From the UHGV virus genome UHGV-0180032: DNA of 64,000 nucleotides; one strand, given 5' to 3'. The stretch comes from a virus. Each line of letters opens with the position of its first letter. Within the stretch, counting starts at the first letter, position 1. The translations under genes and the position numbers were made by a program. The notes beneath the pieces were generated by a model. That model was not told the DNA's origin, searched no databases, and saw only the letters and a list, made by a program, of their open reading frames with translations. Shown here one piece after another: positions 21,011 through 53,548 of the stretch.

Positions 21011-21784
21011 ATGAAAGTCCATTTAGACGACCTCTTTAAAACTGAACCGTATATGGTTAAAGGTTCATTGGCTTCACTGTTGTTAGATGATAGATTTCAT
21101 CGAACGCTCCAATTACAATCGGTCGAATCCGCACCAACAGAAGACGTGGGTCTTTATCAACGTATCACTTATACACGCGGAGAATATCGGCGATATAAAC
21201 CTGATACGCTAACCGTTAAGCTCTGGCAAGTGGCCACAGGCAAAGTATTAACTTATCGCACTGTTGGTCTGTACTACGTTGAACGTGCCTACGCGTGGTT
21301 AGAAGAAGTTAAAGAAATGGATTACGACCGCTTAAGCAAAAGACTGCGCGATAACAACGCCAGTTTACCGATACGCAATTATTTCTCCACAATTGAAAAT
21401 AGTCGTTGTTTCGTTTCACGCGAATCCATGATATTGCCTGGGGCTGATGTTCAGACGACACTAAAAGATGTGGTTGTGAGGAAAATCTTTCATGAATCTG
21501 AACACGTTGGATTTCGTATCTATTTAACTCACAAGAGGCCATTTACCGTGATTCATCTTGTTACCGTACCCGAAGGCTCAGCGGTCGTACGTGAACTTCC
21601 TGACGCACGTGACCGTAGTCCTAATGAGCCGCTTTACTTAATGTCAGGAACAAAATCAGAATCTTTGATGTCCCGTTACAGCATGGTTGATGTTGTTGAT
21701 ACTGCTATGAAGTTAGGTTGGAAAGAAGTACAGCAGCACGGCAAACAATTGCTGTTTATCGCAGATGTAAATCTCAATAACTAA
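21011..21784 (+). CDS. hypothetical protein; paralog family (C-terminal LGWKEVQQHGKQLLFIA)
   Basis: 257-aa ORF with GAAGGAAA RBS; shared C-terminal motif. Confidence 0.55.
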   Translation: MKVHLDDLFKTEPYMVKGSLASLLLDDRFHRTLQLQSVESAPTEDVGLYQRITYTRGEYRRYKPDTLTVKLWQVATGKVLTYRTVGLYYVERAYAWLEEVKEMDYDRLSKRLRDNNASLPIRNYFSTIENSRCFVSRESMILPGADVQTTLKDVVVRKIFHESEHVGFRIYLTHKRPFTVIHLVTVPEGSAVVRELPDARDRSPNEPLYLMSGTKSESLMSRYSMVDVVDTAMKLGWKEVQQHGKQLLFIADVNLNN

Positions 21785-21796
21785 AGAGGTGGTACC

Positions 21797-22375
21797 GTGT
21801 ACCGATTAATAGAAATGAGAAAAGACGTTTGGTTGGAAAACCTCGTCGATGGGGAGCTCGAGGGAATAGAGCTTTCCTTACCAGAGAGAGCGGACACGGT
21901 ATTGGCCTTTCTGGTAAAACAGGCAGACCGTGAACCGGTAGGAATCTTCACTGTGGACTATAAAGATCCACGAGGAATCCATTTACGGAACATTTGCAGT
22001 GGTTTGGAAAACTTACCGGCTAATCCGTTCTTAAACTACGCAAAACGTAAACTCCAACCGGGACAACACCTCTGGGTAACGTTATCGCCTGACGTTAGGA
22101 TCATACGTGACGATTACTCGGCGTTTGTACAGGCAACGAAAGTCAGTCTGTATAACCCGAACGCAGAGCGTACCGATATGCCGTTTATAATTACCTTAGA
22201 AGACGATGGAACGCAAGAAGGTATCGAGGCAATTACGGAATTAGTAAACTCTTATCCGGTTGCCACTATGGAGTTAGAAAACCCAAGCCGACTACCGTTG
22301 GGTGACCTGCTCGAATGGATTGAACTGAATACAGAATTCTTAATCAATTCTCGTCAGTATCGATTCGATGTTTAA
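21797..22375 (+). CDS. hypothetical protein (192 aa)
   Basis: GTG start with AGAGGTGG RBS; followed by terminator at 22380-22410. Confidence 0.5.
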   Translation: MYRLIEMRKDVWLENLVDGELEGIELSLPERADTVLAFLVKQADREPVGIFTVDYKDPRGIHLRNICSGLENLPANPFLNYAKRKLQPGQHLWVTLSPDVRIIRDDYSAFVQATKVSLYNPNAERTDMPFIITLEDDGTQEGIEAITELVNSYPVATMELENPSRLPLGDLLEWIELNTEFLINSRQYRFDV

Positions 22376-32003: not shown

Positions 32004-32009
32004 TACTTG

Positions 32010-32047
32010 CCCCTAATCCGATTGGATTAGGGGTACTTTTATTTATT
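32010..32047 (+). terminator. intrinsic terminator
   Basis: CCCCTAATCC/GGATTAGGGG stem with GATT loop followed by a T-rich tract. Confidence 0.7.
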
Positions 32048-32066
32048 CCCCTAAAGGAGCAAAGCT

Positions 32067-32546: not shown

Positions 32547-32598
32547 CTTTTTACAAAACCCTTAGTTGATTTGAACAAACCTAAAGAGGACTATTAAA

Positions 32599-33543
32599 AT
32601 GACTTTTCCATCTGAAGTAATCTACACACTGGCTAATATTTTTCGCCGTGGTCATAATTTCCCACAGTTCCGGAAATCGGCAGATGTTACAGCCGACTTT
32701 CTGTTTAATTATCTAATTGGTACCGATCCTGCAAGCGTTACGCAGGAAACAATTATGGATATTGAACGTGTCTCGGAAATTATCCCGATCGACTACGCCT
32801 CAGGGTATCAAGACGGAGTTAAGTTCAACTTCTCAATGGGTATGCGTCGGACTTCCATTGACATTAAGCCACGCACGAGTAACGAAACCCTTCCAGCAGC
32901 AAACTACAATCACGAAGCTCACGGTAACTGGTTAGTTGTTGTAGAGCAGGGTAAGAATCAGTATGAAGTCGTCGCGGCTAAAGAAGAAAACTATTTCGAC
33001 CTGGGTCAGATTTCTCGCACTGAAGAAATCTTTTTTAATGCACGTCAGGGCAATATCGGTGTAACTGGAAGTACGGTTTGTTTCATTCTAAGCAGCTGGC
33101 CGCATATTGGTTACGTCTTAACCAACGCCTCTAAAACATTCCACACTTTAAAAATAGAGCACAGTCATAAAGTGCTGGGTGATTTGTTTGCTGCCGACGT
33201 TGAACTACCAGTCTCTGGTACAGAAGTCGCTGTCTGTGAAAACTACGATGATCTGAAATCTGTGCTCGTTAAACGTGATGTTTTCGAATCGTTAAACCTG
33301 GATTTCCCTGGTGACGAAAAAGAAATATCCGTAGCTGACCTGGTAGAAGCATTGTGTCAGAAAGACCAAGCTAATGAGATCAGTGACGAAGAAGCGGAAC
33401 TCTTCCAAGTTCAACAACTCGTCAGCAAGGTTATCGGGGGGCAGGAAATCGTTGACACCCTTATGGCTTTACCAGCGAAGAAACGTACTCAAAAGTACAT
33501 TCGTGAACTGGTTCTTAAAAACCTGGGTCAAGCCAAAAAGTAA
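32599..33543 (+). CDS. hypothetical protein; paralog of 33604-34152
   Basis: N-terminus ...LANIFRRGHNFPQF...ADFLFNYL resembles ...LAYGIRRGSVFRTR...ANFLFDRL of the next gene; terminator follows. Confidence 0.55.
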   Translation: MTFPSEVIYTLANIFRRGHNFPQFRKSADVTADFLFNYLIGTDPASVTQETIMDIERVSEIIPIDYASGYQDGVKFNFSMGMRRTSIDIKPRTSNETLPAANYNHEAHGNWLVVVEQGKNQYEVVAAKEENYFDLGQISRTEEIFFNARQGNIGVTGSTVCFILSSWPHIGYVLTNASKTFHTLKIEHSHKVLGDLFAADVELPVSGTEVAVCENYDDLKSVLVKRDVFESLNLDFPGDEKEISVADLVEALCQKDQANEISDEEAELFQVQQLVSKVIGGQEIVDTLMALPAKKRTQKYIRELVLKNLGQAKK

Positions 33544-33551
33544 TTTAAGTC

Positions 33552-33585
33552 CCCTACTCCTCCGGGAGTAGGGTTATTCTTTTTT
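33552..33585 (+). terminator. intrinsic terminator (CCCTACTCC family)
   Basis: CCCTACTCC/GGAGTAGGG stem followed by TTATTCTTTTTT. Confidence 0.75.
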
Positions 33586-33603
33586 CCATCTTAGGAGTAT
33601 TAA

Positions 33604-34152
33604 ATGTTTCCATCGTCTGAATATTTAACCCACCTGGCTTACGGTATTCGTCGTGGTTCTGTTTTCCGTACACGTTTAAAGGATATAAATTTCCTGGCTA
33701 ATTTCTTATTTGACCGTTTGGGAGATGGTAATAGCGTTTACAAAAAGATCACCACAACACAACTTTATTCCCTTATAGCAGCATCTGAAATTGTACCTAC
33801 AGATATTTGGCGATTCAAACGGTATTGCGAGGAAATTACGATCAGTTTTCTTGATCATTCTCCGATTACCGTTGAAATCGTCGATCGTGTGGACATTAAT
33901 AGTGAGGTATCAGGTTGGAAGATTCTGTTCGATTGTGGCAATCGTTATGCGGTACTTGGTTCTTCGGATGAGCGTGACTTCCCATTCGACAAGCCCTACT
34001 ACTACCTCAACGAAGATGAATTCCCGGATAAAGAATCCAATATCTTTTTAAACGGGAATACCGTTTACTTCATTTTTCGTACCTGGAACGATGTTGCTGC
34101 TATGATTGCTCAAGGCGTCATCGATTACCGTAAACTAGAAGTCGACATTTAA
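33604..34152 (+). CDS. hypothetical protein; paralog of 32599-33543
   Basis: AGGAG RBS; shared N-terminal motif; terminator follows. Confidence 0.55.
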   Translation: MFPSSEYLTHLAYGIRRGSVFRTRLKDINFLANFLFDRLGDGNSVYKKITTTQLYSLIAASEIVPTDIWRFKRYCEEITISFLDHSPITVEIVDRVDINSEVSGWKILFDCGNRYAVLGSSDERDFPFDKPYYYLNEDEFPDKESNIFLNGNTVYFIFRTWNDVAAMIAQGVIDYRKLEVDI

Positions 34153-34161
34153 AATAAAAGC

Positions 34162-34198
34162 TACCCTACTCCCGAAAAGGAGTAGGGTAATTTCTTTT
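34162..34198. terminator. intrinsic terminator (CCCTACTCC family), between convergent genes
   Basis: TACCCTACTCC/GGAGTAGGGTA stem followed by ATTTCTTTT; adjoins the stop of the minus-strand gene at 34197. Confidence 0.7.
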
Positions 34199-34820
34199 AG
34201 TTAACTAACCCGTTAGCTTTAAGAATCTCTAACATCTGGTTGTTTAACTCTTTTAATTTTTTGTTTTCGTTTGTCAACGAAGTAACTTGTTCCGACAACG
34301 GAATAGCCTCTCGAATTTTCCTTTTCCGTGCTGCTTCCATTTGCAAGTGTTGCTCCTCCGTCACTTTCCCTTCATACTCCATGGTCGTGATTTCGACTTT
34401 CGGGTCAATACCCAAGGTACGGGTAAGAATATCCGAAACGTCTTTAGTCATCACCGACACATCTACATAATCCGGTACAAACGATAAGTCCACCACCATC
34501 ACATTACGCTGATACGCAATTCCTGATAAACCAGGACACGATTCTACGTAAGTGTCAGGGATATAAACGACTTGGCCATCGCGTGATTTAAACGTAAGTA
34601 TTGACGCGTTAACGGTAGCATCAGCAAGATATTCTTCTCGCTCCAACCCGACGGGCTTGTAATACTCGTTGTAAACATCAATATTCTGACGTACTAAATC
34701 TGGGAAGGTACGTGATGCCTCCACCGTGAAGATAACCGTTTCGGCTAACGTAAACGGTGTTTTTACCTTAAATAAACCCGTTGTGTTAACGGGAACCAAA
34801 AGAGGTAAACGCGTAGCCAT
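34197..34820 (-). CDS. hypothetical protein (207 aa)
   Basis: Minus-strand ORF starting 4 nt after the upstream gene stop; C-terminal coiled-coil-like segment. Confidence 0.5.
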   Translation of the reverse strand: MATRLPLLVPVNTTGLFKVKTPFTLAETVIFTVEASRTFPDLVRQNIDVYNEYYKPVGLEREEYLADATVNASILTFKSRDGQVVYIPDTYVESCPGLSGIAYQRNVMVVDLSFVPDYVDVSVMTKDVSDILTRTLGIDPKVEITTMEYEGKVTEEQHLQMEAARKRKIREAIPLSEQVTSLTNENKKLKELNNQMLEILKANGLVN

Positions 34821-53488: not shown

Positions 53489-53528
53489 TACCCTACTCCT
53501 AGACAGGAGTAGGGTATTTTCATTTTTT
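53489..53528 (+). terminator. intrinsic terminator (CCCTACTCC family)
   Basis: TACCCTACTCC/GGAGTAGGGTA stem followed by TTTTCATTTTTT. Confidence 0.75.
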
Positions 53529-53548
53529 ACCCTAAAGGAGAATTTACC

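Follow-up and report, generated by a model that had tools for sequence, protein, structure and literature searches.

Two adjacent genes, located at 32599-33543 and 33604-34152 of the 64,000-nucleotide (nt) stretch analysed here (UHGV virus genome UHGV-0180032, hereafter the window), encode paralogous proteins of 314 and 182 amino acids (aa), respectively, and each gene is followed by a hairpin with the same perfect stem. The window represents part of a jumbo phage of about 222 kb of Enterobacteriaceae, to which Machinavirus and Seoulvirus (SPN3US) are distant kin. The 314-aa protein possesses an N-terminal domain (N-domain) and a C-terminal domain (C-domain), and the 182-aa protein corresponds to a stand-alone N-domain. 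These sequences are best read as the outcome of a tandem duplication of the N-domain that is specific to the lineage, a reading that is well supported. Taken as a whole, the locus is likely to be explained by such a duplication within the lineage, by hairpins that belong to a terminator family reused in the genome, by maintenance of their stems, and by read-through of the hairpin that lies between the two genes. The initial annotation of this locus had gone further and held that the tandem duplication included the terminator; the tandem duplication stood, but inclusion of the terminator is not implied by the shared stem, and that the terminator was co-duplicated with the gene, although possible, is rather doubtful.

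Both genes of the initial annotation were recovered as open reading frames (ORFs), and the paralogy that it had proposed from a shared N-terminal motif was borne out. BLASTP aligned residues 3-187 of the 314-aa protein with residues 2-181 of the 182-aa protein (191 alignment columns with 26% identity; 45 bits, E = 2e-10), a span taking in the motif RRG..F...FLF..L. As is the case with tandem paralogs, the two genes are adjacent, lie on the same strand, and have products with significant similarity. Both products match the same PHROG, the phrog_11818 profile matching the 314-aa protein over its full length (8.4e-30) and the 182-aa protein weakly (4.1e-3, profile positions 6-176). Eight columns, M1, F3, P63, W111, Y122, N152, V160, and W167, were invariant in both paralogs and the Machinavirus orthologues. 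The C-domain is absent from the 182-aa paralog and is conserved in the orthologues of Machinavirus and Seoulvirus. Among relatives, the 182-aa protein shares 90% to 97% aa identity, with a ratio of nonsynonymous (dN) to synonymous (dS) substitution rates of 0.08-0.18; thus, the 182-aa ORF is a real gene under selection. The similarity expected between the two units was present at the protein level but not at the DNA level, where nothing except short, chance-level repeats was detected between the two cassettes outside the hairpins.

A single phrog_11818 gene occupies the syntenic site in all six outgroup genomes (five of Machinavirus and that of SPN3US), and the gap between this gene and the convergent DUF7194 gene is just 44-57 nt. 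Thus, the 182-aa gene is an addition in the lineage of the window. When 1.84 billion representative proteins were searched exhaustively with a profile, just 14 clusters of the family were obtained, the sole short one (183 aa) being of the 182-aa type. The 182-aa protein matched every co-resident 314-aa allele over the full N-domain (37-46 bits), versus partial alignments of 21-27 bits with the orthologues of other genera. Single-copy outgroups, together with an extra copy that is nearest to its own neighbour, form the pattern of a tandem paralog, and it was on these grounds that the duplication proposed earlier stood. The duplication is evidently old, because the two proteins retain only 26% aa identity and the genes no residual DNA similarity. 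The ancestor carried a single gene, with a variable N-domain and a conserved C-domain, that ended at a bidirectional terminator common with the convergent DUF7194 gene (T2; Table 1). The part encoding the N-domain would then have been duplicated in tandem in the ancestor of the E. coli phage group, which would have placed a stand-alone 182-aa gene between the parent gene and T2. Purifying selection acts on both copies.

Acquisition of the 182-aa gene from outside, namely insertion of a diverged homologue from an unsampled phage beside the resident gene, possibly with its own terminator, would fit the mere 26% identity to its neighbour. It would also suit a locus that is a recombination hotspot, in which N-domain alleles cross sublineages and the genealogy of block 33235-34260 is a separate one. 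Such an origin is nevertheless very unlikely given the higher scores to every co-resident allele than to any other genus; in addition, no further short homologue cluster was present among the 1.84e9 representatives, and no donor lineage was found.

Table 1. Features of the duplicated locus and of related hairpins in the window
Feature	Position	Strand	Description
314-aa two-domain protein gene (phrog_11818)	32599..33543	+	Orthologue of ChrisDB gp222, Huxley gp212, and SPN3US gp201
Hypervariable N-domain block, ~aa 9-214 of the 314-aa protein	32622..33241	+	Part paralogous to the 182-aa protein
C-domain, acidic/helical, ~aa 215-314 of the 314-aa protein	33242..33543	+	Nearly invariant; ALPxKKRTxK motif conserved
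T1, unidirectional intrinsic-terminator-like hairpin between the paralogs	33552..33585	+	CCCTACTCC-TCCG-GGAGTAGGG plus TTATTCTTTTTT; -18.3 kcal/mol, z -4.6
182-aa stand-alone N-domain paralog gene	33604..34152	+	Lineage-specific; purifying selection
T2, predicted bidirectional terminator at the convergent junction	34153..34198	both	A-tract, TACCCTACTCC-CGAAAA-GGAGTAGGGTA, T-tract; -21.0 / -23.4 kcal/mol (two strands)
Convergent DUF7194 gene	34197..34820	-	PF23824 match, 1.8e-70; T2 is its predicted terminator too
T0, related terminator variant, two genes upstream	32008..32035	+	Stem CCCCTAATCC/GGATTAGGGG
T3, third exact stem copy	53489..53516	+	TACCCTACTCC-TAGACA-GGAGTAGGGTA; behind an unrelated phrog_7768 gene

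The initial annotation had also placed a terminator with the same stem behind each gene, and this was found to be so. Both hairpins have a perfect CCCTACTCC/GGAGTAGGG stem and a T-rich tail and are situated 8-11 nt past the stop codon, the core hairpins being CCCTACTCC-N4-GGAGTAGGG at 33552-33573 and CCCTACTCC-N6-GGAGTAGGG at 34164-34187. On the two strands of the window, the 9-mer occurs six times against 0.23 expected, and three matches to the complete hairpin pattern were counted (0.00 in shuffles). The folding z scores ranged from -4.6 to -6.5, the tails contained at least 5 T in 8, and terminators were called on the + strand only for T1 and on both strands for T2. With a stable G+C-rich stem-loop and a T/U-rich tract past the stop codon, both hairpins are, as judged by these features, Rho-independent-type terminators. 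A (C/A)CCTAAAGGAG motif was observed just upstream of gene starts, often after a terminator tail (32049-32059, 53530-53540, 19246, and 24775; also 32582-32592); it had 4 matches versus 0.59 expected, with at most one mismatch, and may represent a shared ribosome-binding or promoter context.

A gap of 30 nt separates the end of T1 from the ATG of the 182-aa gene, a gene provided with an AGGAG ribosome-binding site of its own. No sigma-70-like site was detected beside T1 or T2 by a scan that does not cover promoters of phage-encoded polymerases; the relative SPN3US encodes its own multisubunit RNA polymerases. Because the 30-nt gap leaves no room for a sigma-70 type promoter, expression of the 182-aa gene probably depends on transcripts that read through a leaky T1, or else T1 serves as a 3' stabiliser. 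T2 would end transcription from both directions.

The stem shared by T1 and T2 is not specific to this pair of genes. It recurs in T3, where the exact copy is at 53491, and the phrog_7768 product ahead of T3 has no similarity to either paralog. Its wider distribution was seen in NZ_CP173450.1, a circular record of 221,873 bp that was submitted as a 'plasmid' within a complete E. coli assembly and shares 98.3% identity with the locus. This complete genome has 58 terminator-like perfect hairpins, including five with the CCCTACTCC stem and four with (T)ACCTACCTCC, and three further stems occur twice each. The sequence CCTAC was present in 15 of the 58 stems (2.5 expected), yet it is under-represented genome-wide, and the terminator arms are composed of C, T, and A only, a restricted vocabulary. 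In IMG/VR, an exact-pattern scan located this hairpin on 58 contigs, 25 of them of at least 200 kb, with 88 sites in all; the sites mostly number two to six per genome, most have T/A tails, and not all are orthologous.

Hairpins orthologous to T2 were found at the convergent junction of the relatives, the stems being CTACCCTACTCC in the window, CTACCCACTCC in ChrisDB, CTACCTACTCC in SPN3US, and CCTACCTACCCC in Huxley. Those of ChrisDB and SPN3US show a one-base difference, while the adjacent protein is 24% identical. From this conservation, T2 is taken to be the ancestral, orthologous terminator of the junction. These comparisons show that the hairpins are, by sequence, members of a C/T-rich palindromic stem family with a CCTAC/GTAGG core that is reused genome-wide and across the clade. 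Since the stem is also present in T3, in five copies in the complete genome, on 58 IMG/VR contigs, and in the ancestral T2, its sharing by the two paralogs is weak evidence for co-duplication of the terminator.

Consecutive terminators with the same 8-nt core were more frequent in NZ_CP173450.1 than expected (4 versus 0.66, P = 0.002), the pairs being 58967/59755, 64377/65140, 108414/113781, and 214304/214920. Only one of these pairs flanks paralogs; the genes flanking the other three are not detectably related. This clustering is regarded as specific to this genome because SPN3US gave 0 pairs versus 0.24 expected.

Comparison of the window with the genomes L003-L006, L018, L052, and L069 revealed how the hairpins vary. 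Among genomes 97% to 99% identical, the stems stay perfect and the loops turn up reverse-complemented: TCCG versus CGGA in T1 (33561-33564), the latter in L005; CGAAAA versus TTTTCG in T2 (34173-34178); GATT versus AATC in T0 (32020-32023); and TAGACA versus TGTCTG in T3 (53500-53505), a flip plus one substitution. The stem of T1 was invariant in five relatives, and that of T0 showed compensatory changes between sublineages. Spacer inversion with arm homogenisation is described in PMC8604942 as a signature of template switching between inverted-repeat arms. Since the loops flip between close relatives, template switching appears to be active here and may help to keep the arms perfect. Stem identity would be kept by selection on the stem, by homogenisation of the palindrome through template switching, or by both. 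Because the coding DNA of the two paralogs retains no similarity, the 18/18 match of their stems has to be upheld by selection or homogenisation and is no passive relic; as these processes keep the stems, the match says little on whether T1 arose with the duplication.

These observations bear on the alternative that the whole gene-plus-terminator cassette was copied in one tandem duplication, in which case T1 would descend from T2 and the stem identity would be inherited. The arrangement itself fits, since two neighbouring genes on one strand both have the same 9-bp stem behind them; the 3' arm and tail are 85% identical over 20 nt, and the above-chance sharing of stems by neighbouring terminators in NZ_CP173450.1 could reflect local cassette duplication. 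However, T2 is no less similar to the distant T3, with which it has an 11-bp stem (TACCCTACTCC) in common, than to T1 (9 bp), five copies of the stem exist in the genome and many in the clade, and three other neighbour pairs share a stem without paralogy. Inheritance alone cannot explain the 18/18 match, since no coding-DNA similarity remains; the 5' regions of the two genes (score 28) resemble each other no more than other gene starts do (27, 27, and 25), and the second C-domain would, in addition, have to have been deleted precisely. No DNA-level repeat or junction defining a duplicated unit that includes the terminator was found, the hairpin being the sole shared DNA. On balance, copying of the whole cassette is possible but unlikely.

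Candidate junction scars were also considered, one being TTTTCCATCT, which is present at codons 2-5 of the first gene (32604-32613) and in the T1 tail, and the other a 24-nt imperfect direct repeat (17/22) at the start of the 182-aa gene (33582-33630), translated as FPS*EY*M and then FPSSEYL. They were dropped in view of the start-region scores given above.

Several points weigh against the explanation favoured here, that is, in-lineage duplication of the N-domain with reused, maintained terminators and read-through of T1. How the duplicated segment was laid out is beyond reconstruction; had the whole cassette been duplicated and the second C-domain then lost, T1 would be a true copy of T2, and the 20-nt similarity on the 3' side would be accounted for as well. 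The clustering of neighbouring stems is absent from SPN3US. Termination and read-through were deduced from the sequence alone, and the phage RNA polymerases may heed other signals or use very short promoters invisible to the scan.

The N-domain of the 314-aa gene is, from comparison of the alleles, a hotspot of allelic replacement. The block 32622-33241 exists as at least four alleles, which are exchanged among phages otherwise 97% to 99% identical. Within it, the window shares only 50% to 66% nt identity with every relative, including those 98% identical overall, and L003 and L006, which belong to different sublineages, are 88% to 94% identical. The flanks, 32548-32621 and 33235 to about 34260, are 90% to 100% identical in five genomes, even across sublineages that differ to about 75% identity; the latter flank takes in the C-domain, T1, the 182-aa gene, and T2, and has its own genealogy. 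The dS values were 1.5-2 in the block (dN about 0.42, dN/dS about 0.25) and about 0.03-0.33 in the flanks in every pair. At the protein level, the variable N-domain of 18 alleles lay between aa 1-9, which did not vary, and aa 209-314, which hardly did. The divergence of the N-domain is, by these values, old allelic divergence and not in-situ hypermutation. A diversity-generating retroelement or other hypermutation system was considered as its source and rejected: 33604-34152 and 32622-33241 are without DNA similarity, synonymous sites are saturated with dN/dS of about 0.25, and no reverse transcriptase is encoded among the neighbours.

The breakpoints of this mosaic, at 32622, 33241, and about 34240-34269, do not coincide with the hairpins (33552-33573 and 34162-34189). 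They bear on a further alternative, in which the palindromes are recombination substrates or mobile regulatory cassettes of the PeSL type and the extra gene was gained at a hairpin, leaving a copy on each side. The gene is indeed flanked by two copies of one palindrome, three more same-stem neighbour pairs bracket genes in the complete genome, and PeSL-type elements are proposed, in PMC4122927, to mediate such shuffling. Against this, apart from the position of the breakpoints, five relatives showed no indel polymorphism bounded by the hairpins, the sigma-70 scan revealed no promoter half, and the clustering of stems was not reproduced in SPN3US; gain of the gene by this route is thus highly improbable.

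Swapping of alleles among near-identical phages is a typical signature of host-interaction genes. The allele-swapping N-domain suggests such a role, as in an arms race, for the 314-aa protein. A more far-reaching interpretation, in which the stem is a sequence-specific signal common to Seoulvirus-, Machinavirus-, and E. coli-type jumbo phages, or a hairpin-copying substrate that seeds cassettes, and the two proteins form an arms-race pair, is quite unlikely. Readers of such a signal could be the phage RNA polymerases, an RNA-binding protein, or a nuclease; within the pair, one N-domain copy could be host-targeting or defence-evading, with the other acting as its fixed partner or as a decoy. 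An SbcD-like subunit of an endonuclease specific for palindromes is encoded by SPN3US (21020-22168), which could bear on the tolerance or processing of many perfect palindromes.

Neither protein, nor the region, matched a family in Pfam, NCBIfam, or Rfam. Models predicted with AlphaFold2 (AF2) had a predicted local distance difference test score (pLDDT) of 63.5 for the 314-aa protein and of 75.4 for the 182-aa protein, the latter with a predicted template modelling score (pTM) of 0.74. A Foldseek search against BFVD returned solely uncharacterised orthologues from Erwinia and Salmonella jumbo phages; no fold match and no solved relative were found in PDB, and the literature held nothing relevant on the stem sequence or SPN3US gp201. 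A SAP domain (Tho1) was considered for aa 216-257 of the C-domain and dropped (family profile E = 0.2, not confirmed by Pfam); the AF2 model of these residues is helix-extended-helix. Variants of the family (P0013, P0028, P0030, and P0031, besides the SEGD1 proteins) include an allele with a 34-aa insertion in the inter-domain linker and a truncated form of 103 aa. In members of the SPN3US type (377-401 aa), the domains are separated by a large insertion, and in phage SEGD1 the gene is apparently split into two ORFs (A0A142IIR4/5).

Besides NZ_CP173450.1, four contigs from IMG/VR share 97% to 99% or about 75% identity at the locus and form two sublineages; their lengths are 107-225 kb, three being of 220-225 kb. 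Near-identical proteins are present in assemblies of E. coli, Shigella, and Salmonella. The E. coli isolate of NZ_CP173450.1 came from urine, and contigs of about 222-226 kb encode the proteins found in Shigella and Salmonella. These findings point to a jumbo phage that accompanies clinical isolates, either in a carrier state or by pseudolysogeny. The nearest isolated phages are far off, being the Machinavirus phages of Erwinia and Salmonella, with 24% aa identity in the 314-aa protein, and SPN3US. No match was obtained with megablast of the locus against INPHARED phages or with tblastn of the 182-aa protein against phages. Gene order is kept in all relatives, with genes for a macro-domain protein, an SLT transglycosylase, phrog_8114, and one or more small membrane proteins ahead of the phrog_11818 gene, and the convergent DUF7194 gene followed by virion structural genes on its far side.

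Terminator stems form a reused family, and a genome-wide census is therefore needed first: in these phages, identical stems beside paralogs are not readable as duplication scars during annotation. The locus marks a narrow, uncharacterised SPN3US gp201-like family with a swapped N-domain; the E. coli jumbo phage that carries it is unstudied and has a clinical association. The terminator stem is conserved across genera far beyond structural need, and the frequent loop inversions indicate that the palindromes are mutationally active. Current understanding is unchanged by these findings unless the stems are recognised sequence-specifically; the locus is ordinary biology with modestly interesting side observations.

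In comparison with known systems, the hairpins resemble Rho-independent terminators in having a G+C-rich perfect stem of 9-13 bp, a loop of 4-6 nt, and a T-rich tail and in lying 8-11 nt past the stop codon, and T2 resembles bidirectional terminators in having an A-tract upstream and a T-tract downstream and in its predicted service to both convergent genes. What is constrained in an ordinary terminator is its structure and not its sequence. Here, by contrast, one and the same stem is reused several times in a genome and in different genera, and the CCTAC/GTAGG core is enriched sixfold; furthermore, the T-tails are interrupted, and the elements are known from sequence data only.

The hairpins are also similar to the PeSL cassettes of T4-like phages (PMC2839356 and PMC4122927) in being a repeated, conserved intergenic stem-loop in a large myovirus that sometimes brackets accessory genes. 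They differ from PeSL in that no promoter half was found in the sigma-70 scan, recombination breakpoints lie off the repeat, and hairpin-bounded indels are lacking among the relatives. As in the spacer inversions by template switching reported in PMC8794818 and PMC8604942, the loops of T0 to T3 are exact or near-exact reverse complements and the arms are perfect; those reports concern yeast coding DNA and RNA hairpins, whereas the elements here are putative phage terminators and the mechanism is read from the pattern alone. Finally, the 314-aa protein is like the uncharacterised jumbo-phage proteins of the phrog_11818/SPN3US gp201 family in its full-length match and syntenic position, and the 182-aa protein is unlike them in being a C-terminally truncated N-domain that is present only in the phage group of E. 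coli, Shigella, and Salmonella.

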